From the IMG/VR virus record IMGVR_UViG_3300020042_009361, positions 1-31,076 of that record: 31,076 bases of DNA; one strand, written 5' to 3'. The position numbers and the translations under genes are program-made. This document shows positions 1 to 30,872 of the stretch, piece by piece; the first letter of the stretch is position 1, and the number at the start of each line of letters is the position of its first letter. The DNA comes from a virus (Duplodnaviria; Caudoviricetes). The notes below the pieces were generated by a model that made no database searches, was not told the origin of the DNA, and was given only the letters and a program-made list of their open reading frames with translations.

Positions 1-1
1 G

Positions 2-49
2 TACAATATGTCTCGTCGTCGTATGAAGACTATCGAGTTAGTGGGTTAA
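2..49 (+). CDS. 3' end of a gene truncated by the window edge (..YNMSRRRMKTIELVG*)
   Basis: Open frame from the window edge to TAA at 47-49, followed by the same CATGTGTGTGTTTTTA + hairpin module that follows the stop at 1862. Confidence 0.45.
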   Translation, partial: YNMSRRRMKTIELVG

Positions 50-57
50 TACCCAGC

Positions 58-112
58 CATGTGTGTGTTTTTACAAGTAGGGGCCCAAAGGGGCCCCATC
101 TTGTTGTGTACC
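58..112 (+). repeat. 3' module copy 1: CATGTGTGTGTTTTTA + GGGGCCC hairpin + TGTACC
   Basis: 16 bp identical to 1867-1882; stem 80-86/91-97; TGTACC 107-112. Confidence 0.75.
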
Positions 113-137
113 TTCCTTAAACCCCCTTACACCTTTG

Positions 138-167
138 TTTGGCTCAGCTGAACATAGATGTTATATT
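138..167 (+). promoter_or_regulatory. Early promoter repeat (TTTGGC-N18-TATATT)
   Basis: TTTGGC 138-143, GATGTTATATT 157-167; resembles the Bacteroidota -33 TTTG / -7 TAnnTTTG promoter; fixed spacing in at least 12 copies. Confidence 0.85.
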
Positions 168-190
168 CAGGTATAATTAAAAACACGAAT

Positions 191-463
191 ATGAAAAATT
201 TCAGAGAAGAACAAATTAACTCAACTAAAGACCATTGCATTAACCAGTATTGGGAGAAGGATGTAAAGGTAGATGGTGTAAACATTACTTTTTATTACTG
301 GAGAAGAAAGGAAGGATGTAAAGGTTTTACAGGTGAAGAACGAATTATGAAGGTAGTAGGAGTTAAGGATGGTAAAAAGAGAATGGTTAGAAGTGTTTGG
401 ACACTTAATTTAGGAGAAGGACATTGTATTAAGGACATTATAAATAAATTTAAAGGGGTTTAA
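191..463 (+). CDS. Hypothetical early protein (90 aa, basic)
   Basis: ORF; start moved from 158 (inside promoter) to ATG 191 after A-rich leader. Confidence 0.75.
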   Translation: MKNFREEQINSTKDHCINQYWEKDVKVDGVNITFYYWRRKEGCKGFTGEERIMKVVGVKDGKKRMVRSVWTLNLGEGHCIKDIINKFKGV

Positions 464-470
464 CCCTTTG

Positions 471-500
471 TTTGGCTTAACGGGACATAGATGTTATATT
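471..500 (+). promoter_or_regulatory. Early promoter repeat
   Basis: TTTGGC 471-476, GATGTTATATT 490-500; 467-525 matches 1021-1079 at 57/59. Confidence 0.85.
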
Positions 501-527
501 TAACCATAATTAAAAAACATAAACACA

Positions 528-737
528 ATGGAATTATTAAAACATGAAATTGAGGGTCAAGTAGTTGAAAACACTTACACTATTCAACATCCAAAGGAAG
601 GAGTATTAGTGTATAAAGAGTTTATTGACTCTAGTAATGGTAAATGTATTGATTTCATTTTACGTAGTAAAGATGGATATGAAATTGATGATGCAAGTTT
701 GGTTGAAGAAGTACAAGAATTTATTGATAACCTATAA
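528..737 (+). CDS. Hypothetical early protein (69 aa, acidic)
   Basis: ORF directly after promoter/leader repeat. Confidence 0.8.
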   Translation: MELLKHEIEGQVVENTYTIQHPKEGVLVYKEFIDSSNGKCIDFILRSKDGYEIDDASLVEEVQEFIDNL

Positions 738-747
738 TTATAGACAC

Positions 748-1017
748 ATGGACTACAATAAACACACTGACGAAGTATTAGAACGCTTACAGGCACATCA
801 AGTTCTAGAGATACTGGCTATGGCTAACCAATCAATAAGCCAGGCATTAACACAGATACAGGAACTAGAGCATAACTCGATGATGTACCTGGATATGAGA
901 CCAACTAGGGAGATCATGGACGACATAAACGCCTTGCATTTACACCTACACTTCCTAGACTCCGCTAAGTCATTCGCTAAAAATGAAATACATGAGATAG
1001 GGTTTTACCTTAACTAA
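748..1017 (+). CDS. Hypothetical helical protein (89 aa)
   Basis: ATG 748 (MDYNKH..) avoids overlap with upstream gene; stop abuts next repeat. Confidence 0.75.
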   Translation: MDYNKHTDEVLERLQAHQVLEILAMANQSISQALTQIQELEHNSMMYLDMRPTREIMDDINALHLHLHFLDSAKSFAKNEIHEIGFYLN

Positions 1018-1024
1018 CCATTTG

Positions 1025-1054
1025 TTTGGCTTAACGGGACATAGATGTTATATT
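1025..1054 (+). promoter_or_regulatory. Early promoter repeat
   Basis: TTTGGC 1025-1030, GATGTTATATT 1044-1054. Confidence 0.85.
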
Positions 1055-1080
1055 CAATCATAATTAAAAAACATAAACAT

Positions 1081-1263
1081 ATGAAGACATTTAAGGTAGA
1101 AGAAACAGTTTTGAAAACAGTTAAACGAGTTTATTTTGTGGATGCTGAGGATGAGGAAGCAGCGGTTCACCGAGTGATGAGTCATCAGAAGGATGTTGAT
1201 GAGGAGGATGAGGTGGATGAAGAAGTAACTGATTATAAGGTAAAGAAATACAAATTTAAATAA
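1081..1263 (+). CDS. Hypothetical small acidic protein (60 aa)
   Basis: ATG 1081 after leader; DVDEEDEVDEEV tract. Confidence 0.75.
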   Translation: MKTFKVEETVLKTVKRVYFVDAEDEEAAVHRVMSHQKDVDEEDEVDEEVTDYKVKKYKFK

Positions 1264-1270
1264 CCTTAGA

Positions 1271-1300
1271 TTTGGCTCTCGGAGGACAGGACGTTATATT
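1271..1300 (+). promoter_or_regulatory. Early promoter repeat
   Basis: TTTGGC 1271-1276, GACGTTATATT 1290-1300. Confidence 0.8.
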
Positions 1301-1325
1301 TAGATTAATAATAAAAACAGATAAC

Positions 1326-1862
1326 ATGAAAACAGTATTAGAACAATTAACAGAGTTAAAGGAAAAGATTGATGCAATCGAAAATGCAATATGTGGCGAC
1401 ACATCATCAGAATTTGAACCATGTTGCAGCGGTGAATGTGATTGCGGATGTGATGAACCACCTGTGGAGGTGGAAGATGACAGCCCAGAGTATGATGGTG
1501 CTGGGTTTACTCATGCAGATAGAGTAGTGGATAGTCAATACATGGTAACAGAGGATAATAAGTACGCGGGACATGTTCACCTTACCAGAGCAGAGATGAT
1601 CGACTTCGCCACTAGGTTAACAGAACGAGTAATCGCCTCAGTTAAGGAAGCAGTCACAAACACTAGTTTGGATGTAGATGACTTGGTCACTCTAGAGCTA
1701 AATACTTGGAATGGTAATACAATTGAAATGGAGTTGGATAAGGATACACTCACTAATAACATCAATAGTGAAATTGAGGATGCGGTTTGTTTAGATGTAG
1801 ATTCAATAAATGATGAGATAGATGATATTTTTGGGGACATGTACCTAGAGAGGATCAGTTAA
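1326..1862 (+). CDS. Highly acidic protein with CCSGECDCGCD cysteine cluster (178 aa)
   Basis: ATG 1326 after leader; D/E-rich throughout. Confidence 0.8.
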   Translation: MKTVLEQLTELKEKIDAIENAICGDTSSEFEPCCSGECDCGCDEPPVEVEDDSPEYDGAGFTHADRVVDSQYMVTEDNKYAGHVHLTRAEMIDFATRLTERVIASVKEAVTNTSLDVDDLVTLELNTWNGNTIEMELDKDTLTNNINSEIEDAVCLDVDSINDEIDDIFGDMYLERIS

Positions 1863-1866
1863 GTAG

Positions 1867-1924
1867 CATGTGTGTGTTTTTAATTATATAGGAGTTGGGG
1901 CCGCTTGCGGCCCCTCTCTGTACC
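1867..1924 (+). repeat. 3' module copy 2: CATGTGTGTGTTTTTAATTATA + GGGGCCG hairpin + TGTACC
   Basis: Matches 58-112; stem 1897-1903/1908-1914 (terminator-like or stabilising hairpin). Confidence 0.75.
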
Positions 1925-1928
1925 TAGG

Positions 1929-1958
1929 TTTGGCCTCTGGTAAAGGTGATGTTATATT
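1929..1958 (+). promoter_or_regulatory. Early promoter repeat
   Basis: TTTGGC 1929-1934, GATGTTATATT 1948-1958. Confidence 0.85.
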
Positions 1959-1982
1959 TAGTCATAATTAAATAACACGAAC

Positions 1983-2246
1983 ATGAACAAAACAGAATCA
2001 AGAAAAGCGCTTAACAAGCTAGTATTTGAAATGGTAACATCATTAGGTTACAATATCGATGATGATGGGGATGGAGGACGAGTAACGTTTATCAAACCTA
2101 ACTTCAAAAATTATCATGACAGTATTGATTATCACAAATCACGTTTTGACATTTGCGTTTTAAATGACGCTAGTGATAAGGTTAAGGAGGATGGTGAGAC
2201 AATTGAGTGGTTTATTAATGTACAAAGAAAAGCATTAGACATATGA
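1983..2246 (+). CDS. Hypothetical early protein (87 aa)
   Basis: ORF after promoter repeat; ATGA coupling to next gene. Confidence 0.8.
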   Translation: MNKTESRKALNKLVFEMVTSLGYNIDDDGDGGRVTFIKPNFKNYHDSIDYHKSRFDICVLNDASDKVKEDGETIEWFINVQRKALDI

Positions 2247-2578
2247 GTAAATTTAAAGCAACAGAAAACGAGTGGCACAATGGTTTCCACATCACATTTA
2301 AGAACGGTTATACCATAAGTGTTCAATTCGGTAAAGGTAATTACTCAGACAAAGGTGAGACCACAGCTGAGATAGCAGCGTGGGGCCCTGATGGTGAGTG
2401 GATGATACTAGGTGAGGGTGATACCGTTAGAGGATGGTGTTCACCAGATGAGGTACTCGAGGTCATGAACACAGTAGCGAGCCAGGGTAAGAAAAAGATG
2501 TCTACATTTAAGGTGTTACGCCTAGCATTATACATCGCATTAGTAACAGCAGTAATAATATTAATAATAGCAGTATGA
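2243..2578 (+). CDS. Hypothetical protein with C-terminal transmembrane anchor
   Basis: FHITFKNGYTISVQF beta domain; hydrophobic tail LALYIALVTAVIILIIAV; 4-nt overlaps at both ends. Confidence 0.8.
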   Translation: MSKFKATENEWHNGFHITFKNGYTISVQFGKGNYSDKGETTAEIAAWGPDGEWMILGEGDTVRGWCSPDEVLEVMNTVASQGKKKMSTFKVLRLALYIALVTAVIILIIAV

Positions 2579-3123
2579 AACGCCTAGTAATACACCCGAC
2601 AGACGAGTCCACAGACTTCCTAGCGCCAATATACAACCGCTTACCAGACGTCACGTTAGTGACTACAGGATGTAGCCGGCTCGAGCTCATGGATATGATA
2701 GACGAACACGATCAGGTGATCATGTTAGGTCATGGAACGCCAGGTGGGTTGTTGAATGTATCAGGATTCAGATCAGGCATGTACATTGTAGATGCACTGG
2801 TGGCTGAAGCATTAGCGGTTAAGGACAATAGCATATTCATCTGGTGCAACGCGGACCAGTTTGTTAACAGACATAAGCTCAAGGGCATGTACTCAGGGAT
2901 GTTCATCAGCGAGGTAGCGGAAGCGTCTTACTTTAAAATATTGACAGACCAGGATACAGTAGACAGATCCAATGATACGTTCGCGCAGTTGTTAGGTGAA
3001 CGTTTACTGGTGTCAGACGCCATGGATGAGATACATACCAGTGTAGGTCATCAATACCGCTTACTAGCGGAGACAAACGACATCGCTAGGTACAACAGTG
3101 ATAGATGGTATATAAGTAGGTAA
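2575..3123 (+). CDS. Hypothetical protein, possible clan CD (caspase/gingipain-like) fold
   Basis: VIMLGHG and IFIWCNA strand-His-Gly / strand-Cys motifs; ORF solid, function inferred. Confidence 0.6.
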   Translation: MKRLVIHPTDESTDFLAPIYNRLPDVTLVTTGCSRLELMDMIDEHDQVIMLGHGTPGGLLNVSGFRSGMYIVDALVAEALAVKDNSIFIWCNADQFVNRHKLKGMYSGMFISEVAEASYFKILTDQDTVDRSNDTFAQLLGERLLVSDAMDEIHTSVGHQYRLLAETNDIARYNSDRWYISR

Positions 3124-3130
3124 CCTCTTG

Positions 3131-3160
3131 TTTGGCCTTATGGACATATGATGTTATATT
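3131..3160 (+). promoter_or_regulatory. Early promoter repeat
   Basis: TTTGGC 3131-3136, GATGTTATATT 3150-3160. Confidence 0.85.
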
Positions 3161-3186
3161 TAATCATAATTAAAAAACATAAACAT

Positions 3187-3381
3187 ATGAAACCAAAAAG
3201 CACTTATTTAATTTTCATGGACCGTCGTGACATCTTTAATTACATCACAATCAAATGTGTTAGCGGAGAATTAAACCAAGCATTAGTTAAAGAAGAATTG
3301 ATGATGAATGGTAACCACTGGCAGGATTTTAATTGGGTTATCTTTAAGGATAGTGTTTTATTAGGTGCGTACAGTGAGTAA
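3187..3381 (+). CDS. Hypothetical early protein (64 aa)
   Basis: ATG 3187 after leader; single-gene unit between two repeats. Confidence 0.75.
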   Translation: MKPKSTYLIFMDRRDIFNYITIKCVSGELNQALVKEELMMNGNHWQDFNWVIFKDSVLLGAYSE

Positions 3382-3387
3382 CACTTG

Positions 3388-3417
3388 TTTGGCTTAGCGA
3401 GACAGGGATGTTATATT
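3388..3417 (+). promoter_or_regulatory. Early promoter repeat
   Basis: TTTGGC 3388-3393, GATGTTATATT 3407-3417; 3407-3436 identical to 157-186. Confidence 0.85.
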
Positions 3418-3443
3418 CAGGTATAATTAAAAACACATATAAT

Positions 3444-3701
3444 ATGAAATTTAGATCAGACAATGAAGCCCCAGTAACAGCAGTTGAAACGGCAATCGAA
3501 AACATTTTAGTAAACAACGGTTACGACGCTAGTGATATCCAATTCCGTATATTCAAAGACAACGAACGTTATTTGAGAATCGGTTACTGGCAACGCTTAA
3601 ACGAAGACATTAGAGTGCAGTTATCAGGTCTGGTAGTATCTGAGTTTGACATGTACGATGACGACTGTGGTTACTTATTCAGTTACGAAATTAAACACTA
3701 A
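3444..3701 (+). CDS. Hypothetical early protein (85 aa)
   Basis: ATG 3444 after leader. Confidence 0.75.
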   Translation: MKFRSDNEAPVTAVETAIENILVNNGYDASDIQFRIFKDNERYLRIGYWQRLNEDIRVQLSGLVVSEFDMYDDDCGYLFSYEIKH

Positions 3702-3714
3702 TTAAAAACCAGAT

Positions 3715-3924
3715 ATGAACAGATTAATTCAATACATCGAAGCCAATTTAGATCGTTTCTCAAACATGGATGAGGACGAGGTAATAGAGTTAGACGCTCA
3801 CTACATGGATGATGACATAGTTGAGTACTTGAAAGGAACAACCCAATATATGTACAAAGGGATCTGCATGTACTATGTAGGCGAAAGTGATGAAGTGTGG
3901 ATCGAAAAAGTAGACATACCATGA
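3715..3924 (+). CDS. Hypothetical acidic protein (69 aa)
   Basis: ORF with A-rich leader. Confidence 0.75.
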   Translation: MNRLIQYIEANLDRFSNMDEDEVIELDAHYMDDDIVEYLKGTTQYMYKGICMYYVGESDEVWIEKVDIP

Positions 3925-4058
3925 TAGAATATAAGCGAATGAGGATAATGACTCACAACCAAATAGGTTTAATGATCACTTGGGGCACTTCTGTTATACC
4001 AAAACGCAGATACATCTCATTAGACATTCCATTTTTAATCATCCAATTTTATATATAA
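3921..4058 (+). CDS. Small hypothetical protein (45 aa, MIEYKRMRIM..FLIIQFYI), not in ORF track
   Basis: ATGA overlap with upstream stop; fills the gap to 4067. Confidence 0.55.
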   Translation: MIEYKRMRIMTHNQIGLMITWGTSVIPKRRYISLDIPFLIIQFYI

Positions 4059-4066
4059 TTAAGAAC

Positions 4067-4252
4067 ATGAACGCTAAAAAATTCATAATCGAATACACTG
4101 GTAAGACAATAGATCAATTTCCTGAACACCAGTTCAATCCATACCCAGCAACTGCACCAGCATGGGAGGTGTTAGACCAGAATGGAGCCTCTAGGTTCGT
4201 CGGTCCATATCAAGCGTGTGAAAACTTCATCCAAATGTACTACCAACGATGA
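4067..4252 (+). CDS. Hypothetical protein (61 aa)
   Basis: ATG 4067 (MNAKKF..) preferred to TTG 3980. Confidence 0.7.
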   Translation: MNAKKFIIEYTGKTIDQFPEHQFNPYPATAPAWEVLDQNGASRFVGPYQACENFIQMYYQR

Positions 4253-4413
4253 TGACAACGATGAGCTACAACGCCGCGCTAGTGATGATGGAGGTCCATC
4301 GTCAACAAGTGCCACATGGTGAACTGTCACCTAATATGGTGAAGACGATCGCCGATGAAATTCACGTCCCACTGACTAGTGAGGAGGTGGTTTACATATC
4401 CGACCACGCTTGA
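4249..4413 (+). CDS. Small hypothetical protein (54 aa, MMTTMSYNAAL..ISDHA), not in ORF track
   Basis: ATGA overlap with upstream stop; TGA 4411-4413. Confidence 0.6.
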   Translation: MMTTMSYNAALVMMEVHRQQVPHGELSPNMVKTIADEIHVPLTSEEVVYISDHA

Positions 4414-4660
4414 TCCTCCTACATCGCATAAGTGTGCGTGTACACGGTATGTACATATGCGGTACTGCGCTCACGCTACCATGCGCGTTGATATCCATAT
4501 ACCCGGTAGTCCTGAAAACCCGTGGAATGGATTAACTTTCAGATCGTAAACGATCTTTACACGCCGATTTGTATATACATATATACTACCCAACAACACA
4601 CCTCAAATCCCAAACTAACCCCTTCAACCAAAAATCACAAGAGATGAAAAAACTCCTCTA
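4414..4660. other. Non-coding palindrome-rich region with G-free tract (candidate genome end / packaging site / origin)
   Basis: Palindromes GTGTACAC, ATGTACAT, TGTATATACA; hairpin 4541-4556; no G on + strand 4572-4640. Confidence 0.4.
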
Positions 4661-4668
4661 ACAAAAAG

Positions 4669-4698
4669 TTTGGCATCGAGTGAGTATATACATATATT
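4669..4698 (+). promoter_or_regulatory. Promoter (TTTGGC-N18-TATATT), divergent spacer
   Basis: TTTGGC 4669-4674, TATATT 4693-4698; same spacing as other copies. Confidence 0.75.
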
Positions 4699-4718
4699 CA
4701 TATATAAAATAAAAACAT

Positions 4719-4976
4719 ATGATTTCACCAAGAGCAATTAGAAAAAACATTACCATTAAATTCGATGGTAAGGTAGTAGACAAAGCAGTGGTAGTAGAAG
4801 CGAGTAAAACATGGGAACCTAAGCATGCAACGCTATTCACGAAGTTGCTAAAACAGGGTGGTAAATTCACTGCTAACGGCGTTATAGTCGAAGTAATACC
4901 ACAGGAACAAATGTTAACTTCACGAGGTGAAAAAGATGGTGGTATCATCACTTCAGATCCTTTAGCACGATTTTAA
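4719..4976 (+). CDS. Hypothetical basic protein (85 aa)
   Basis: ORF after promoter and A-rich leader. Confidence 0.8.
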   Translation: MISPRAIRKNITIKFDGKVVDKAVVVEASKTWEPKHATLFTKLLKQGGKFTANGVIVEVIPQEQMLTSRGEKDGGIITSDPLARF

Positions 4977-4977
4977 T

Positions 4978-5157
4978 ATGAAAGACAAAATAAAAGCACA
5001 CCTAAAAGCAATAGGAACAATGTTAGCAATAGTAGGAGCATCAATAATACTATCGCTATTACCACCAAAGGTAATATTAGCACTAACATTATTAACGCCA
5101 ATAGCATTTATATATTGGTTAATATATGAAAACTTCTTACGCAATAGAAAAAAATAA
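4978..5157 (+). CDS. Small membrane protein (59 aa, 2 hydrophobic segments), not in ORF track
   Basis: MKDKIKAHLKAIGTMLAIVGASIILSLLPPKVILALTLLTPIAFIYWLIYENFLRNRKK; fits exactly between neighbours. Confidence 0.7.
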   Translation: MKDKIKAHLKAIGTMLAIVGASIILSLLPPKVILALTLLTPIAFIYWLIYENFLRNRKK

Positions 5158-5161
5158 AAAG

Positions 5162-5404
5162 ATGGCAAAATTAACAATAGAATTTGACCTCGTTGAGGAA
5201 GCAGAAGGAATACACTCTGCACTATACGGATACAAGTATAGAAGTTTACTTTGGGAACTAGACCAAAAACTCCGTAGCGTCCATAAGTATGGAGCCGCAT
5301 TACAAGGTCAAGGTGAGGCAACATCTGAAGAAATGGATGTATGTTACCGTCTAAGAGACGTTATTAGAGAAATGCTACAAGAAGATAACTTAACAATAGA
5401 ATAA
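5162..5404 (+). CDS. Hypothetical protein (80 aa)
   Basis: ATG 5162 (MAKLTIEFDL..) follows stop at 5157. Confidence 0.75.
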   Translation: MAKLTIEFDLVEEAEGIHSALYGYKYRSLLWELDQKLRSVHKYGAALQGQGEATSEEMDVCYRLRDVIREMLQEDNLTIE

Positions 5405-5429
5405 ATCGTATATACGTATTAAAGTGCAA

Positions 5430-5467
5430 TAAGATGGGGTTCACACATGGACCTCTCTTACTTTTTT
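5430..5467 (+). terminator. Putative intrinsic terminator
   Basis: TAAGATGGGGTTCA-caca-TGGACCTCTCTTA imperfect stem with G-U pairs, then T6. Confidence 0.45.
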
Positions 5468-5469
5468 AA

Positions 5470-5477
5470 TATTTATA
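5470..5477 (+). promoter_or_regulatory. Putative late promoter TATTTATA
   Basis: Motif recurs 3-17 nt before ATG of nine genes in the window. Confidence 0.6.
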
Positions 5478-5480
5478 ACC

Positions 5481-6440
5481 ATGATAAAACTTACTGATTT
5501 ACTTAAAGAATTAGACCTACGTAGTGGGGACCTAGATGATAATATCACTTTAGAACAGGTATTAATAGCGTTTATAGAAGATTTTAATTTAGATGAAGAT
5601 GAATTTATTACTGTAAGTAAAGGTAAGTTTAATTCTGATGTGTTTACTTTAAAACCTAGTATTCCATTTAACCCTCGTTTAATTAAAAAGAGTATTATCA
5701 TAGCAGATGGTGAATATGAATTCATAGTACCTTCTTCTTATCGTGGTACTTTATATTTAGTGAATACTAAAGGTACTACTTTAGATGATTATGTTATAGG
5801 GCAAGTAGAGGTAGAAAAAATATATATTAACGCGAATTCAGGGCGTACTAAACCATATCGCCTACCTGGTGCAGAGATACATTTAACATATATTAGCCCG
5901 AAGTACCGCGGAAAAGGACTGGGTGTTAAGATGTATACTATGTTATTAGAAGCATATAAGACAATTTTCTCAGATAATACCTTATATCCAGGTAGTTGGA
6001 ATCTATGGATTAGTAAGTTAGCCCCTATAGGTTTACAAAGTGGTAATTTTATTGGGGGTGAAGTAGGTGGAATTATTGTTCCGTTCACTCCTGCAGATAT
6101 AAGTGATTCTAGTTTAATGCAAGGTATAGGAGTGGACCATTTAATACTGTCCACTGAGCCACCTCAAGTGTTACTTGATATTAAACAGGCTTTATCTGGA
6201 TTATCTCTATCTAGTGGTGATTATGGGATTTATGAATCAACTACAAAAATTAAAGTAACTGAGTTAGATGCAATTGTTGATGAGTCTGCTTCAATCGAAG
6301 AAGTAATTGAAGGAGCCGATTTAATGCAAATGGTTGGGTTGAATGACGATGATAACTACCCAGTTATAGTAGTAGCAACTCAGGACGCTTTAGCGGTGAT
6401 TCGCGAGGTAGGTGACGATGTTACTCTAGAAATCGTCTAA
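5481..6440 (+). CDS. GNAT-fold acetyltransferase-like protein with MIKLTDLLKE leader
   Basis: EIHLTYISPKYRGKGLGVKMY matches GNAT motif A (R/Q-x-x-G-x-G/A). Confidence 0.7.
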   Translation: MIKLTDLLKELDLRSGDLDDNITLEQVLIAFIEDFNLDEDEFITVSKGKFNSDVFTLKPSIPFNPRLIKKSIIIADGEYEFIVPSSYRGTLYLVNTKGTTLDDYVIGQVEVEKIYINANSGRTKPYRLPGAEIHLTYISPKYRGKGLGVKMYTMLLEAYKTIFSDNTLYPGSWNLWISKLAPIGLQSGNFIGGEVGGIIVPFTPADISDSSLMQGIGVDHLILSTEPPQVLLDIKQALSGLSLSSGDYGIYESTTKIKVTELDAIVDESASIEEVIEGADLMQMVGLNDDDNYPVIVVATQDALAVIREVGDDVTLEIV

Positions 6441-6492
6441 TCCATTAATTTTCAACATTCTAGTACCTTTCTGTAACCTTTCCGGTTGAATG

Positions 6493-6522
6493 TTTGGCTT
6501 CTGGGGGAGTTGATGTTATATT
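6493..6522 (+). promoter_or_regulatory. Early promoter repeat
   Basis: TTTGGC 6493-6498, GATGTTATATT 6512-6522. Confidence 0.85.
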
Positions 6523-6550
6523 TAGCTTATAATAATTAATAATAACGGTT

Positions 6551-6721
6551 ATGAGCACAACAATGATTATCTTTTTAATTTTAGGAGCAGTAGTTACACG
6601 AGTAATCGCAACTAAAAAAGCTGGAGTTAAACCAACAACTAAACAGGAAATGGTTAACTTTTTATGTAACGTGACTATTAATTTTGCAATTTATATCACT
6701 TTAACAATCATTTTCGGTTAA
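6551..6721 (+). CDS. Small membrane protein (56 aa), not in ORF track
   Basis: MSTTMIIFLILGAVVTRVIATKK..FAIYITLTIIFG; single-gene unit between two promoter repeats. Confidence 0.7.
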   Translation: MSTTMIIFLILGAVVTRVIATKKAGVKPTTKQEMVNFLCNVTINFAIYITLTIIFG

Positions 6722-6724
6722 GAG

Positions 6725-6754
6725 TTTGGCTCACCAGGATAAGGATGTTATATT
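6725..6754 (+). promoter_or_regulatory. Early promoter repeat
   Basis: TTTGGC 6725-6730, GATGTTATATT 6744-6754. Confidence 0.85.
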
Positions 6755-6784
6755 TAGGTATAATTAAAAACACAAATAAAGGTT

Positions 6785-7078
6785 ATGAAAAAAAGAGGAC
6801 GCCCACCCGGGACAAAGAAACAAGAAGTTAAATTAGAAGTAAGCACAGCTGAACCTATAAAAAGAGGCCGTAAGGCAGTTCAAAAAATATTTATTGTACC
6901 TACAATTGATGCCTTAGAAGGTGAATTTGAAGGTACTACACCTGAGAGATTAAAGATATATGCAGACCAGGCAGTTCTTTTAGCTCAAGATATAGATAAG
7001 GATCCATGGAGAATGGATTATAGAGAAAAATACAGAAACACAATCAGTCGTATGTGTTCATTAATTCAAGAATTATAA
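6785..7078 (+). CDS. Protein with AT-hook-like motifs (putative DNA binding)
   Basis: KKRGRPPG and KRGRKA. Confidence 0.65.
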   Translation: MKKRGRPPGTKKQEVKLEVSTAEPIKRGRKAVQKIFIVPTIDALEGEFEGTTPERLKIYADQAVLLAQDIDKDPWRMDYREKYRNTISRMCSLIQEL

Positions 7079-7099
7079 ACAAATAAATAAATAAAGGTT

Positions 7100-7903
7100 A
7101 TGCCACTAGATTTAAACAACAACACGTTCTTAACTTCTCCTGAAATTAAGGAAAAAGCAAGTTCAATTTTCACAACTACAAGTGCCCCAGGCACTAGTCA
7201 GAAGTATTCACACATCTCAACTAAACAAATCATTGATGATATGGAAGAATTAGGATGGGGTGTAGTAGATGCTAAACAAGTACGCGCCCGTAAAGGTGAA
7301 GGTTTTCAAAAACACTTAGTAGTATTCCGTAATAATGATTTATTCATTGAGGGTGCTGATGGTGATAATGTTTTTCCACAAATTCTATTAACTAATAGTC
7401 ATGATGGTAAAAATGCATTTACATTCACAGCTGGTTTGTTCCGAATGATTTGTGAGAATGGTTTAGTAATTTCAACTCAAGAGTTTGAAAATATGAAAAT
7501 TCGTCACTACGGATATGATTTTAATGAATTACAAACTGTTATTAATACAATGGTGGAAGCATTACCGTTGGCAGTTGAGTCAATGAATAAATTTAAACAA
7601 ACACAATTAGCTCAAGAACAGATTTTAGAGTTTGCTCGTAAAGCAGTTCAAGTACGTTTTGGAGAAGAACAAGCACAAAACATCGCAATTGATTATAACG
7701 CCTTAACTACAGCCACTAGACCTGAAGATCGTGGTACTGATTTATGGAGTGTGTTTAATGTGATTCAAGAAAAAATTACTCAAGGAATGTTTGAATACCA
7801 ATCAGGAGCTAAAGTAAGAAAAGCTCGTAAGATTAAGAACTTCAAACAAGATTTAGATTTAAATGCTAAATTGTATGAGTTAGCAGCTGAGTTTGCTGCC
7901 TAA
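7100..7903 (+). CDS. DUF932/DUF945-family phage/plasmid protein
   Basis: LLTNSHDG, GLFRMICENGL, R-x-ED..LWSVFNVIQE motifs. Confidence 0.85.
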   Translation: MPLDLNNNTFLTSPEIKEKASSIFTTTSAPGTSQKYSHISTKQIIDDMEELGWGVVDAKQVRARKGEGFQKHLVVFRNNDLFIEGADGDNVFPQILLTNSHDGKNAFTFTAGLFRMICENGLVISTQEFENMKIRHYGYDFNELQTVINTMVEALPLAVESMNKFKQTQLAQEQILEFARKAVQVRFGEEQAQNIAIDYNALTTATRPEDRGTDLWSVFNVIQEKITQGMFEYQSGAKVRKARKIKNFKQDLDLNAKLYELAAEFAA

Positions 7904-7924
7904 TTAGTTTAAGGTTGATTATTA

Positions 7925-7950
7925 AGAAGGGAGCGAAAGCTCCTTTCTCT
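7925..7950 (+). terminator. Intrinsic terminator
   Basis: AGAAGGGAGC-gaaa-GCTCCTTTCT with GNRA loop. Confidence 0.75.
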
Positions 7951-7978
7951 GTTGTATTTATAATAAACATTATATATT

Positions 7979-8227
7979 ATGGGAAAAAAAGGAAAGTTAA
8001 TTGATATAATTAAAAGCATTATTGTTGAGAATAGAGGAACAGTTTCTTTAGAGAATGATAAAAATGAATTTAAATTAAGTACTTATAGAATAATTAGAAG
8101 TTTAGATGATTATAATATAGCTATGAGAAATGGAGATTATAAAAAAATGAGTGAGGAACTAGATGTACTTAGATTCCAATTAAGAAAATTAAAAGAGACT
8201 ATAAATTTACTTGAGAAAAAAATATAA
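7979..8227 (+). CDS. Hypothetical coiled-coil protein (82 aa), late motif upstream
   Basis: TATTTATA 7955-7962; N-terminal KLIDIIKSIIVE. Confidence 0.7.
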   Translation: MGKKGKLIDIIKSIIVENRGTVSLENDKNEFKLSTYRIIRSLDDYNIAMRNGDYKKMSEELDVLRFQLRKLKETINLLEKKI

Positions 8228-8249
8228 TATTTATATCAAAACACACATT

Positions 8250-8537
8250 ATGAAAAAATTCTTTAAAGATTTATTATCAGGATCTTCTGATACTTCAAGT
8301 AAGCGTTTCGCTTCAATTTTAGCTCTATTTGTTGTTATATCTCTAGCGTACATAGCTACTTATAAGAATGAGGAACACATCACACCCGAATTCATGTTCG
8401 ATTCAATCGCGTTAATTGCTGGTGGTGGATTAGGTTTAACTGTTATAGAAAACGTTGTTAAGATGAAACAGCAAGCCAAGAATAACACGCCAAATCCCAC
8501 GGATACCCCACCTACTAACCCGAATGAGCAATTATAA
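8250..8537 (+). CDS. Two-TM membrane protein, holin-like
   Basis: ATG 8250 after TATTTATA 8228-8235; SSKR followed by two hydrophobic helices and hydrophilic tail. Confidence 0.55.
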   Translation: MKKFFKDLLSGSSDTSSKRFASILALFVVISLAYIATYKNEEHITPEFMFDSIALIAGGGLGLTVIENVVKMKQQAKNNTPNPTDTPPTNPNEQL

Positions 8538-8560
8538 CGATAAAATATAAGTAGTCGTTT

Positions 8561-8587
8561 AAAGCCGGGTTAAGCCCGGCTTTTTTT
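8561..8587 (+). terminator. Intrinsic terminator
   Basis: GCCGGG-ttaag-CCCGGC followed by T7. Confidence 0.9.
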
Positions 8588-8598
8588 ATCAATAAGAG

Positions 8599-8628
8599 TT
8601 TGGCTTCTTAATGGATATATACTATATT
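8599..8628 (+). promoter_or_regulatory. Promoter of tRNA operon
   Basis: TTTGGC 8599-8604, TATATT 8623-8628, 8 nt before first RNA. Confidence 0.75.
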
Positions 8629-8636
8629 CATCATAT

Positions 8637-8777
8637 GCTCAAGTGGCGAAAGGATCAGGAGGCCCTGGTCGATGGTAGACGCGACGTATGGTTATAACAA
8701 CGTGAGTAAAAAATTATCTGAACAAGATAAGGTCATTATAATGGCAGCTCGTGCAGGTTCAACTCCTGCCTTGAGTA
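8637..8777 (+). ncRNA. Enlarged (141 nt) tRNA-like RNA with Leu-type body
   Basis: Acceptor GCTCAAG/CTTGAGT, discriminator A, D arm GCG..TGGTAGACGC, T arm GCAGG-TTCAACT-CCTGC; extra hairpins in D loop and variable region. Confidence 0.7.
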
Positions 8778-8782
8778 CAAAA

Positions 8783-8853
8783 GGTCCTGTAGCCGAGTGG
8801 TTAGGTGGGGCTCTGCAAAAGCTCATACAGCGGTTCGATTCCGTTCGGGACCT
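8783..8853 (+). tRNA. trnC: tRNA-Cys(GCA)
   Basis: GGTCCTG/CGGGACC acceptor, GGGCT-CTGCAAA-AGCTC anticodon arm, TTCGATT loop, U73. Confidence 0.92.
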
Positions 8854-8859
8854 CAAATA

Positions 8860-8933
8860 GCGCCCTTAGCTCATTTGGTTAGAGCAACTGACTCATAATC
8901 AGTAGGTACCTGGTTCGATCCCAGGAGGGCGCA
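8860..8933 (+). tRNA. tRNA with CAT anticodon, probably Ile2 (lysidine) rather than Met
   Basis: GCGCCCT/AGGGCGC acceptor with C4-G69, C5-G68; ACTGA-CTCATAA-TCAGT; paired 1-72 and no GGG/CCC anticodon stem so not fMet. Confidence 0.88.
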
Positions 8934-8934
8934 C

Positions 8935-9355
8935 AATTGTGGATGTGTTCTTTGACATAATAATAAGGAGAAAATAAATATGGAAACAATGTATTTCGTT
9001 TTAGGTATGCTCTCGATTGTTGGAGCTACTTTTGTAGCCACAACTGTTTGGGGTATAGTTAAGATTACTAAACTGTTAAAAGTAATTAAAGAACAAGAAC
9101 AACAAAGTAAGAATATTGAACGTGATGGGTGGGAAAATTTAAATCATCTACGCCAAGATTTGGATCGTAGATTAGATGAAATAGGACGCCATTCCGATCA
9201 TCAGGTCACTGAGTTGCAGCGTGAATTAGATATTAAATTTAATAACACTGTGTCTTATGTAGACTCAAGAATTGATAAAATGTCTGCTACATTAAAAGAG
9301 CAAAAACAATTAATTAAAGGATAAATTTAAACCTGTCAATAACACATCCACAATT
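8935..9355. repeat. Inverted repeat pair (8935-8957 / 9334-9355) enclosing one ORF
   Basis: AATTGTGGATGTGTT-ct-TTGACA vs TGTCAA-t-AACACATCCACAATT. Confidence 0.85.
8980..9324 (+). CDS. N-terminal TM anchor + coiled-coil protein (114 aa)
   Basis: Hydrophobic residues ~5-28 then helical charged region; AAGGAG at 8965-8970. Confidence 0.8.
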   Translation: METMYFVLGMLSIVGATFVATTVWGIVKITKLLKVIKEQEQQSKNIERDGWENLNHLRQDLDRRLDEIGRHSDHQVTELQRELDIKFNNTVSYVDSRIDKMSATLKEQKQLIKG

Positions 9356-13541: not shown

Positions 13542-14759
13542 ATGGCTTTATTTAGTGGAACAGTATTTACTGACAATGGAGAAAAATTAGCTAACGCTAC
13601 AGTTACTTTAACATCTCCTAATCTTACTACAAAAACAATTACAACTGATGCTAATGGAAATTGGTCTATTGATGTAAAAGAAAGTATTGATCCTAAAACA
13701 GCTACTGTTACTGTCTCTAAAGGTGGATATGACCTTAAATCAATCCCTAACCCTCAACCTACAGGAGAATACACACCACCACCACCCCAAATTAACCCAT
13801 TAACAGGAGGTACATTAAGTTTAACTGGTGGATTTAAAGGTGGGAAATATTTAATTTCTTCATTAAGTGAAGTAGATAAAAGTGCTTTAGACCAAGAGTT
13901 AAATAATTTAGCTTTATTTATTGAAAATAATCCTGGTAATTATACTGTTACTATAGTATCATCCGAGTCAAGATTAACTAATTATGATCGAGAAGAATCA
14001 AGTCCAACTAATAACAAACCAGTACCTGAAAAATGGTTATCCACTAAAAGACAAGATAATTTAGAAAAATATATTTTAGATTATTTAAATACAAATGGGA
14101 CACCATCACCTAGTATCATTAAATCACCTCTATTAGTACAAGGCCCAGCTAATGGAGCATTCCCTCCTTCCTCTCCTGAATATACAAAATATCAATATAT
14201 TGAACTAGAAGCTAAATTAATCCGCCCTAGATGTTCATGGGTAGAAGTTACAGGTAGTTTAAGAGGAGACAAATTATTAACTAAACCATCAGAATATATA
14301 ACTCGAATAACAATAGACGCAGCTATAGCCCCTGATAGATTTGGATTAAATGGATTCTATAAAGATTATTATTCACAAACCCCCACAGCTCCTGGAACAT
14401 TAGAATCATGGCAATTTATAGCTTATATAGGTTCTATACTTGGAAGAGGAGCAGGCGCTGTTCAATTTCCTATTGATAGAACATTATTAAAAAATAATTT
14501 ACTAGCAGATTATGATTTAGTACCTACTATAAAAGATAATATAATCAAATACGCTACTGATAAAAAAATTTATGATAATAATAAAGAAAAATTAATTGAT
14601 AATGTGATAACTAAAGCTGGGGCATTTGGTAAAAAAGTAGTCCGTGAAGAAACAGTATTTAACATCTCAAGAATACGTAATGGGGACACCTTTACTATAA
14701 ATGCTGAGAATTCATTATACGTAGGTGGCTCAGCTTGGAAATATAAAATGTGTGATTAA
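13542..14759 (+). CDS. Structural protein: Ig/carboxypeptidase-regulatory-like N-domain plus OmpA-C-like domain
   Basis: GTV..GEKLANATVTL..TTDANGNWSI..VSKGGY; VTIVSSES..LSTKRQDNLEKYI. Confidence 0.6.
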   Translation: MALFSGTVFTDNGEKLANATVTLTSPNLTTKTITTDANGNWSIDVKESIDPKTATVTVSKGGYDLKSIPNPQPTGEYTPPPPQINPLTGGTLSLTGGFKGGKYLISSLSEVDKSALDQELNNLALFIENNPGNYTVTIVSSESRLTNYDREESSPTNNKPVPEKWLSTKRQDNLEKYILDYLNTNGTPSPSIIKSPLLVQGPANGAFPPSSPEYTKYQYIELEAKLIRPRCSWVEVTGSLRGDKLLTKPSEYITRITIDAAIAPDRFGLNGFYKDYYSQTPTAPGTLESWQFIAYIGSILGRGAGAVQFPIDRTLLKNNLLADYDLVPTIKDNIIKYATDKKIYDNNKEKLIDNVITKAGAFGKKVVREETVFNISRIRNGDTFTINAENSLYVGGSAWKYKMCD

Positions 14760-15055
14760 TGACCAAACTTTAACTCAGCGTCACACATACTATACCATGT
14801 TTCATATTTATCTCCTTCAAACATAATTGCTATGGCACCAAATACCCAATTCTCTTCATTTAAATTAACTATCTGAATACTACTAGCTTTATAATAAGCT
14901 CCAAGACGAATTGTAAACTCTTCCCATTGGCAACACCCAACTAATGTATCCATTCCTAATTTTACTCCATAATCAACATTACATGGATTTTTCTGAGAAT
15001 ATAGATTTGAATATAATCCAAAAACTAAAAATACACTTGTGATCAATTTTTTCAT
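14756..15055 (-). CDS. Secreted Cys-containing protein with Sec signal peptide (99 aa)
   Basis: MKKLITSVFLVFGLYSNLYS-Q; own promoter at 15076-15105 on minus strand. Confidence 0.8.
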   Translation of the reverse strand: MKKLITSVFLVFGLYSNLYSQKNPCNVDYGVKLGMDTLVGCCQWEEFTIRLGAYYKASSIQIVNLNEENWVFGAIAIMFEGDKYETWYSMCDAELKFGH

Positions 15056-15075
15056 AGTATCTTAATTTATACCTA

Positions 15076-15105
15076 AATATAATAAATATAACTTGGGAAG
15101 CCAAA
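15076..15105 (-). promoter_or_regulatory. Early-type promoter on minus strand
   Basis: Reverse complement reads TTTGGC-N18-TATATTTAGGTATAAATTAA. Confidence 0.8.
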
Positions 15106-28550: not shown

Positions 28551-29411
28551 ATGAAGGGAAAATGTAATTTAGTAAGATGCCAAATTTGTAATCAAGAAAT
28601 GTCTTTTGGTAGGATAAAAAACCATATTAATTCCCAACATAAAAATATAACTGTAGATCAATATATTAAAAAATATTGGTCTACTTTACCCTCATATCAT
28701 CCATGTGAGGTGTGTGAAGATAAAATTGTATATAAGTATAAAACATGTTCTAAAGAATGTAGAAATAAATTAGATCATGGACAAAAAGGTAAACCAAAAC
28801 CTAAAGGATTTATGGGGAAAGAACATAAATCTAAAATAAGTAAATCAAAAATAGGTACAATAGTCCCAAAAGAAATAGGTGATAAAATAAGTAAAAGTTC
28901 TACTGGAGTAAGTCGAAATAAAGGAAAAACTCCAATGTTAGGTAAAAAACAAAGTGAATACCAAAAACAAAGAGTTAGAGAAAGATTTAATAAATATTAC
29001 TCTGAAGGAAATAAACCTTGGACTAAAACCCATTCTCATACTTCTGAGACTATAGAAAAAATATTTTCTAAAAGATCCATAAATAAATTAGAAAAGTTTG
29101 TATCTAGTATATTAGATGAGAATAATATAAAATATCAACAACAATTTTTTATCAAAACAAAAGAAGGGGTTTGTAAATCATATGATTTTAAAATAAAAAA
29201 TACAAACATCTTACTTGAAATAGACGGAGATTACTGGCACGGTGGACCAGGCTTACAAAAACATTTTTATAAAGTAGAAGAAACTAAACATAATGATATG
29301 TTAAAAAATCAACTAGCATTAGAAAATAATTTTAATCTAATAAGGATATGGGAGAGTGATATTTATTCCCAACCTAGTATCATTATGGATAAAATAAAAG
29401 ATTTAATTTAA
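28551..29411 (+). CDS. Free-standing homing endonuclease-like protein (Zn-binding motifs + NUMOD3-like repeats + Vsr/DUF559 domain)
   Basis: CQIC..H..H, CEVC..C..C; EHKSKISKS, HTSETIEKI; YDF..LLEIDGDYWHG..D..K..IRIWESD. Confidence 0.8.
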   Translation: MKGKCNLVRCQICNQEMSFGRIKNHINSQHKNITVDQYIKKYWSTLPSYHPCEVCEDKIVYKYKTCSKECRNKLDHGQKGKPKPKGFMGKEHKSKISKSKIGTIVPKEIGDKISKSSTGVSRNKGKTPMLGKKQSEYQKQRVRERFNKYYSEGNKPWTKTHSHTSETIEKIFSKRSINKLEKFVSSILDENNIKYQQQFFIKTKEGVCKSYDFKIKNTNILLEIDGDYWHGGPGLQKHFYKVEETKHNDMLKNQLALENNFNLIRIWESDIYSQPSIIMDKIKDLI

Positions 29412-30404: not shown

Positions 30405-30872
30405 ATGATAAATTGGTTATATAAAGGTAATAAAATTGAAAATATAGAAGATTTTGGTGAGCATACTCCCTTTGGATTTGTTTATATTATCTCCAACACA
30501 ACCAATGCTAGAATATATATTGGTAAAAAATTCCTACAACATAAAAAGACTAAAAAATTAGGTAAAAAAGTCATGGCTGAACAAACTGGTCCTGGTCGTA
30601 AGAAAACTAAAGAAGTCTCATACGCTGAATCAGATTGGCAAACATATTGGGGTAGTTGTAAACCATTATTAGAAGACGTAAAACATTTAGGTGAAGATAA
30701 ATTCTATAAAGAAATACTAGACCTAGCATGGTCATCAAAACACCTGTCATACCTTGAGGCTAAATACCAATTCAAAACAGATGTCTTAGAAACAAATAGC
30801 TATAACGATAACATACAAGCAAGATATTATAGAAAAGACTTGGCAACCCCAAGTTCTATTGATATATTGTAA
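30405..30872 (+). CDS. GIY-YIG endonuclease, T4 endonuclease II-like
   Basis: GFVYIISN..IYIG-KK, ESDWQTYWGS, catalytic-type E in YLEAKYQ, YNDNI. Confidence 0.8.
   Translation: MINWLYKGNKIENIEDFGEHTPFGFVYIISNTTNARIYIGKKFLQHKKTKKLGKKVMAEQTGPGRKKTKEVSYAESDWQTYWGSCKPLLEDVKHLGEDKFYKEILDLAWSSKHLSYLEAKYQFKTDVLETNSYNDNIQARYYRKDLATPSSIDIL
30839..30868 (+). promoter_or_regulatory. Variant promoter (CTTGGC-N18-TATATT) inside the endonuclease 3' end, ahead of primase
   Basis: Same box spacing as repeat family. Confidence 0.55.

Follow-up and report, generated by a model that had tools for sequence, protein, structure and literature searches.

An anti-leader element before 3'-terminal hairpins of cassette genes in Immutovirus-like phages and its predicted pairing with early leaders

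In this study, we describe a short anti-leader element in the 3' untranslated region (UTR) of phage genes. It was found in a stretch of viral DNA of 31,076 nucleotides (nt) (31 kb; hereafter the window), which is the entire virus record IMGVR_UViG_3300020042_009361 with no sequence beyond it. The element stands between a stop codon and a hairpin and is complementary to the 5' leaders of many small genes of the same phage. Sequence comparison indicates that it is real and conserved and that it is a variant of pairing between 3' UTR and leader not previously described; no description of such an anti-leader element was found in the titles and abstract openings of the open-licence literature (without supplements). 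An earlier note on this DNA had claimed a hairpin-flanked 3' segment complementary to many early leaders, and at sequence level this was upheld by conservation at positions where the hairpin varies and by matching to leader type. The 3'-terminal RNA probably pairs with early leaders through their initiation region and thereby damps (represses) early translation.

Elements and leaders in the window

Bases 1-9,000 of the window hold short plus-strand genes, mostly with TTTGGC-N-TATATT(T/C)A and a leader upstream (hereafter cassettes). The leaders are 20-30 nt long, A-rich (A/C-rich) and without a Shine-Dalgarno (SD) sequence. The segment CATGTGTGTGTTTTTA was verified twice in the window, at 58-73 and 1867-1882. 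As the earlier note had described, the two copies lie a few nt after stop codons (47-49 and 1860-1862, gaps of 8 and 4 nt, respectively), each is directly followed by a hairpin (cores 80-97 and 1897-1914), and a promoter starts after each unit (138 and 1929). The reverse complement of 1867-1888 is also the sequence given there. TGTACC does occur after both hairpins (107-112 and 1919-1924); it is unconserved in relatives and was rejected as a component of the element. The features concerned, all on the plus strand, are as follows.

1-49, plus strand: 3' end of a gene for a 69-amino-acid (aa) helix-turn-helix (HTH; HTH_3/XRE-like) protein, stop 47-49; this end matches the full gene in relative L010 (4232-4441)
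58-73, plus strand: element 1, anti-leader, complementary to the ATG-proximal part of ACAC-type leaders, in an 18-column block invariant in 8 aligned copies
73-104, plus strand: hairpin behind element 1, with its core at 80-97 and a weak T-rich tail; a likely intrinsic terminator
138-193, plus strand: TTTGGC-N-TATATT promoter plus leader for the cassette gene at 191; the first leader to follow element 1 and a predicted target
471-530, plus strand: promoter plus leader for the cassette gene at 528; a predicted target
1025-1083, plus strand: promoter plus leader for the cassette gene at 1081; a predicted target
1271-1328, plus strand: promoter plus leader for the acidic-protein gene; element 2 is predicted to pair with this leader in cis
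1326-1862, plus strand: gene for a 178-aa acidic protein, family unassigned, with element 2 in its 3' UTR
1867-1888, plus strand: element 2, anti-leader, complementary to the consensus leader, from near the predicted start of transcription as far as the ATG
1891-1919, plus strand: hairpin behind element 2, with its core at 1897-1914 and a CTTG loop; a likely terminator, for which relatives have other stems
1929-1985, plus strand: promoter plus leader for the cassette gene at 1983; the first leader to follow element 2 and a predicted target
3131-3189, plus strand: promoter plus leader for the cassette gene at 3187; a predicted target
3388-3446, plus strand: promoter plus leader for the cassette gene at 3444; of all predicted targets in the window the best, with 16 nt matching exactly at 3422
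6725-6787, plus strand: promoter plus leader for the cassette gene at 6785, with 16 nt matching exactly at 6759

The HTH gene matched Pfam HTH_3 at the cut-off (E 1.9e-5). Both hairpins have G/C-rich RNA stems, as in intrinsic terminators; a simple terminator scan flagged hairpin 1 and left hairpin 2 unflagged, and the tails are mixed pyrimidines. Among the promoter motifs of the window, none was seen directly upstream of an element, and a promoter within the element was rejected on inspection since no TTTG box stands at the right distance.

Exact complements of element 2 of 15, 16 and 16 nt were confirmed at the leaders at 172, 3422 and 6759, respectively. The element had been said to complement the leader plus ATG: it does span approximately the start site to the ATG, but no leader in the window matches through the ATG. 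The exact 15-nt partner including the ATG is, in relatives, the leader of an ATPase gene upstream of the window's start. Element 1 has exact matches of 7-10 nt to 8 of the 12 window leaders listed and of at most 5 nt to the other four. When the window was scanned against 8 of 11 leaders, the elements took ranks 1 and 2 of 7,763 scanning windows (z scores -8.2 and -6.5; next -4.6). Mean duplex energies to 10 window leaders were -12.4 (element 1) and -15.8 kcal/mol (element 2), and those of dinucleotide shuffles were -7.3 and -8.2 kcal/mol (standard deviation 1.4). Since 0 of 300 such shuffles equalled either element, the complementarity is above the AT-rich background; the elements were also better than 300 of 300 mononucleotide shuffles.

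Relatives, a cultured phage and other leader types

The window encodes baseplate proteins and two tRNAs and is part of a large myovirus genome. In seven close relatives element 2 was found at the same site with variation of one TG unit and with different hairpin stems, and element 1 was likewise found in each of these seven. The complete relative G001 (160.8 kb) has three copies, after the HTH, ATPase and acidic-protein genes; the third follows a 267-aa P-loop ATPase gene which is located upstream of the window's start. In a genome-wide scan, these copies were ranks 1-3 of 40,193 coding-strand scanning windows (z scores -10.4, -9.2 and -8.1, using 12 of 23 cassette leaders), and the next hit (-6.1) lies within a gene. 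Among 227 gene starts of G001, 14 of the 20 best element partners fall within the 27-gene array, and mean duplex energies were -13.0 for array starts versus -7.1 elsewhere. Duplex prediction in the window and G001 thus has the seed of the element complementing the A/C-rich initiation regions of many mRNAs. Leaders ending in A(A/G)GTT pair weakly with it, two such array leaders in G001 having a mean of -7.7.

Fourteen of 21 screened records carry the element, after the HTH, ATPase or acidic genes or after a gene inserted behind the ATPase, and it also occurs at all three genes in another two phages, in which the ATPase shares 63-64% identity with that of G001. Downstream cassettes are swapped among relatives, while the element is unchanged and remains with its upstream gene. 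In 8 aligned HTH copies the 18-column block holding the anti-leader is invariant, and 5 of 13 pairs of the hairpin are retained through two-sided (compensatory) changes; the consensus structure of the element 2 family was uninformative (2/11 pairs) because its hairpins do not align. Scans with the element pattern gave matches only in close relatives and at one ordinary minus-strand gene start (L008), and another pattern scan matched 3 of 24 records.

Within two relatives, G012 and G014 (L107 and L110), the ATPase stop is separated from the element by an inserted gene of 133 aa that looks HNH-like by eye, and the end of the unit is still formed by the element.

The nearest cultured relative is Flavobacterium phage vB_FspM_immuto_2-6A (Immutovirus, MW353175.1), with 47% and 45% identity in two proteins. 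It was examined as an independent case after the hypothesis was formed. When scanned with 3 leaders, the top of 6,494 scanning windows lay 1 nt after the stop of immuto26A_136, where an anti-leader at 72098-72111 is followed by a hairpin and a T run; the element is unannotated in the record. The 14-nt leader core occurs in 15 forward copies among 160,410 bases, all in the cassette array, and in one reverse copy, which is the one at 72098-72111. The leader of this phage differs from that of the window, and its complement differs correspondingly. The two phages thus share the cassette array and the anti-leader before a hairpin, but immuto_2-6A has another leader core, a single copy and another carrier gene, and its element does not reach the ATG.

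Covariation between leader and anti-leader was found in part, as a matching change across lineages; fine-scale covariation among ACAC-leader clades was not found. A TG/T tail was found for 8 of 66 ATPase proteins, and each of these 8 has an AC-rich leader. In an ATPase tree, which was a quick one with long branches and with 3 of 71 loci lacking a called start, 0 of 55 proteins on the far side of a 96% branch carry the TG/T tail. Other leader types have their own complements between stop and hairpin, in G021 and G038 (both AAGAT), G035 (AAGGTT) and G040. A cross table of 8 genomes showed that the best hairpin-linked 3' UTR scores best against the leader type of its genome in 6 of 8, the remaining two being without an element; the table was not blind, as 3 of the 6 positive genomes were fetched on earlier hints and two positions were added by hand. 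Strong leader-complement matches stood before hairpins in 6/8, versus 99/668 for other 3' UTRs. The AAGGTT-type element of G035 is retained in a 49%-identical orthologue with a different hairpin, and besides the G040 element one further 3' UTR of its gene family has a 12-nt variant.

The ATPase 3' UTR of G021 (L094, oriented 7839-7890) contains a 9-nt complement of its own start-codon context, inside the hairpin loop and not before the hairpin.

Pairing routes, proposed action and alternatives

The pairing values for own leaders, next leaders and nested transcripts are folding predictions. The best partner of the ATPase copy is its own leader (mean rank 0.02 in 10 genomes), which does not hold for the HTH (mean rank 0.73, n=12) or acidic (0.59, n=10) copies. 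In whole-transcript folding, seven of the nine ATPase or acidic transcripts gave own-leader pairing of 0.68-0.85, and none of the 5 HTH transcripts exceeded 0.04. The element 2 transcript gave 0.76 versus 0-0.24 for shuffles, and when nested transcripts ending at element 2 were folded the predicted partner was always the 5'-most leader (0.76-0.89). The next leader downstream is a middling partner for all copies (mean rank 0.32-0.38 among array leaders), and read-through transcripts in the window gave next-leader pairing of 0.67 and 0.84. A purely own-leader model fails for element 1 because the HTH copy lacks own-leader pairing, and a purely next-gene model fails because it disagrees with the conservation pattern, so a mixed model appears to fit best. 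The element would likely act in cis for two genes (ATPase and acidic) and, in the case of the HTH copy, on other messages. The "single antisense switch" of the earlier note is too simple in this respect: G001 has three copies, A(A/G)GTT leaders pair poorly, and action in cis, by read-through and in trans are all possible.

In the mechanism that we favour, the 3' end of the mRNA, or a fragment cut from it, would pair with cassette leaders, by which ribosome entry would be blocked and decay would be faster, and early genes would be damped together as one class. The TTTGGC/TATATT motifs would be early promoters of the host polymerase, the hairpins terminators, and the leader of 20-25 nt the whole translation-initiation region. 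Finished ATPase and acidic transcripts are predicted to fold back on their own 5' leader, and their translation would therefore be mostly confined to the period in which they are being made. Since pairing of element 1 with the leader of its own gene is not possible, it would act on other messages; most likely, hairpin-protected 3' ends of the HTH transcript would accumulate with early transcription and give a delayed negative feedback. The G-rich element 1 would read both C and U in variable leaders.

The promoter TTTGGC-N-TATATT(T/C)A of the cassettes is similar to the TAnnTTTG box of Bacteroidota promoters, located at -12 to -5 (PMC9723704). The arrays also resemble the promoter early stem-loop (PeSL) cassettes of T4-type phages, which have sigma70 boxes and SD sequences: in both, an array of shuffled small genes has a strong promoter per gene and intergenic G/C hairpins, but the window cassettes are without the sigma70 -35/-10 boxes and SD, and for PeSL no leader-complementary segment is described in the available part of the source (PMC2839356). 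From the promoter likeness together with the PeSL-array likeness the host is probably a member of Bacteroidota; the cassette genes may be labelled early from their promoter type and the same array likeness. In such hosts the tuning of initiation depends on the structure of the leader and on key adenines (PMC6847099).

Among known systems of this kind of pairing, the small RNA (sRNA) GcvB of bacterial hosts has a G/U-rich seed and is Hfq-dependent. It silences ACA translation enhancers of many mRNAs (PMC3879156). As with GcvB, one RNA would address A/C-rich initiation elements of many mRNAs; unlike this free-standing host sRNA, the element lies in phage mRNA 3' UTRs, is directed at genes of the same phage and has no promoter of its own. 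The icaR mRNA of Staphylococcus aureus has a 3' UTR motif that pairs with the initiation region in the 5' UTR (PMC3868564). [quoted passage not shown] Such pairing is predicted here for element 2 and the ATPase copy, and in both systems it may take place in cis or in trans; icaR, however, is one host gene with its own SD, whereas the phage leader has no SD and is common to many genes, and the HTH copy spares its own leader. In Bacillus subtilis, an anti-ribosome-binding site (anti-RBS) more than 500 nt downstream pairs with the RBS in cis, with less protein and a shorter half-life (PMC12697547). The biophysics of a distant anti-RBS pairing in cis would be common to both, but anti-RBS sequences are depleted from genes there, whereas in the phages they are retained at purpose-like sites before terminators. 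Rfam gave only tRNAs at gathering score on the window and one chance-level match (E 0.52) in 1-2100. By analogy, the element would work like icaR or GcvB pairing yet belongs to neither family, since it has no SD, no Rfam match and, as its target, a whole class of genes of the same phage.

Besides the limits given above for the ATPase tree and the cross table, several observations weigh against repression of early leaders by the element. It was not found in 7 of the 21 records screened, and G022, G034, G036, G039 and G041 had no convincing element in the parts scanned. The ACAC-leader clades showed no clade-specific tuning of the element and no diagonal in the comparison, and the leader changes of G005 and G008 are unmirrored in their ATPase elements. 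The bias in the element opposite the leader is all towards G (65 G, 1 A); this G.U bias was set aside as proof of RNA pairing because the all-C ATPase leader alone could explain it. The 17-nt match of G040 is lineage-limited (1 of 54 distinct 3' UTRs of the gene family, by eye). In immuto_2-6A the complement ends at the predicted start site, short of the ATG, and for the acidic gene of G011 and G020 own-leader pairing was not predicted.

An alternative, which we consider unlikely, is a local read-through insulator, in which the element pairs only with the next leader so that the next gene is translated only from its own promoter. The next-leader pairing predicted for the two read-through transcripts and the weak T-rich tails are consistent with it, and it would account for element 1, which is without an own-leader partner. 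It is disfavoured by the middling rank of the next leader, by the change of downstream cassettes among relatives while the element does not change, and by other lineages: G021 has no cassette leader for ~500 nt downstream, and the matching leaders of G040 are 46-54 kb away. Quite improbable in our view is a positive or kinetic end-to-end pairing, in which the 3' tail caps its own 5' end against decay or tunes termination. The constant choice of the 5'-most leader by nested transcripts, the own-leader preference of the ATPase copy and the immuto complement, which spans the invariant first 14 leader nt and stops at the predicted start site, all speak for it. The HTH copy, however, has no own-leader partner, and the initiation region is covered, which in the published cases lowers translation (PMC3868564, PMC12697547).

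A site acting at DNA level is very unlikely. The leader motif would then serve as an operator, e.g. one bound by the HTH protein, or in recombination, with the elements as its inverted auxiliary copies; the motif does overlap the predicted start of every cassette promoter, one copy follows the HTH gene, and some copies reach 1-2 nt past the predicted +1. Against this, all copies are antisense and between stop and hairpin, at three unrelated genes and in other lineages, the promoter boxes are in no copy, no inverted cassettes were seen in the arrays, and no HTH homologue was found in the phage collection containing immuto. There is scarcely any likelihood left for an inverted cassette that survives as a relic, for a mini-gene in antisense or for a G/U-rich site of a protein or nuclease whose likeness to the leader complement is fortuitous: leaders rich in A and 3' UTRs rich in T are of low complexity, the TG repeat number varies and a minus-strand ATG stands in a leader-like context, but no shuffle matched the observed pairing and the sequence switches with leader type, unlike a fixed protein site. 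An inverted gene or antisense peptide was rejected, in agreement with the earlier note: in the window each of the minus-strand ATGs is followed by a frame of four sense codons, no promoter of the cassette type stands on the minus strand at these sites, and the antisense frame is unconserved (4 to at least 30 codons, missing in most ATPase copies; the pattern used for this tally missed known copies, and copy counts rest on other screens).

Returning to repression by 3'-terminal RNA, a wider reading is offered tentatively, with somewhat less than even chances. Immutovirus-like phages might possess an RNA-only timer, in which the shared leader serves as an address, a few early mRNAs have complementary 3' ends that accumulate as RNAs protected by the hairpin, translation of the early class is shut off as a whole, genes with AAGTT leaders are spared, and leader and element co-evolve by lineage. 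The spared genes include the HTH gene, which may repress the same promoters. If true, this would be a protein-free, class-wide early control, where the early shut-off of large lytic phages is usually explained by proteins, and it would work in hosts that initiate without SD pairing (PMC6847099). The striking conservation of leaders within cassette arrays would thereby gain a function, and Flavobacterium a short module for silencing. The idea lends itself to a direct test in immuto_2-6A, in which a single copy faces 15 perfect targets.

Other features of the window and its relatives

A PHROGs search gave no name for any of the first 20 window proteins. On the minus strand, a lone cassette with this type of promoter stands among structural genes (14756-15105); it is present in G001 too. 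Two genes (28551-29411 and 30405-30872) have homing-endonuclease-like PHROG matches, the top match of the latter carrying the label NAD synthetase. The stretch 4410-4660 has no called gene and consists of palindromic and alternating sequence with a local flip of GC skew; similar stretches were found after the array in G021 and G035, and it is possibly an origin or a packaging-related site.

In L010, 2770-2935 holds G+C-rich short repeated or palindromic units between the ATPase hairpin and the next promoter. Such a stretch was also seen in G009 after the ATPase and HTH hairpins, and it is length-variable or missing among close relatives. Upstream of the window in G001, L010 4015-4170 (from tRNA-Leu/tRNA-Met to the HTH gene) contains ~100-125 nt of non-coding sequence with a hairpin at its end, which is 78-85% conserved in G020, G031 and G032 (4 of 12 records including G001). 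It had no Rfam match and is a candidate for an unknown structured RNA. In the window, a tRNA-like stretch of ~140 nt (8637-8778) with complementary ends and a T-loop-like motif follows the promoter at 8599 and was not called by ARAGORN or Rfam. Other over-long tRNA-like stretches are present in relatives.
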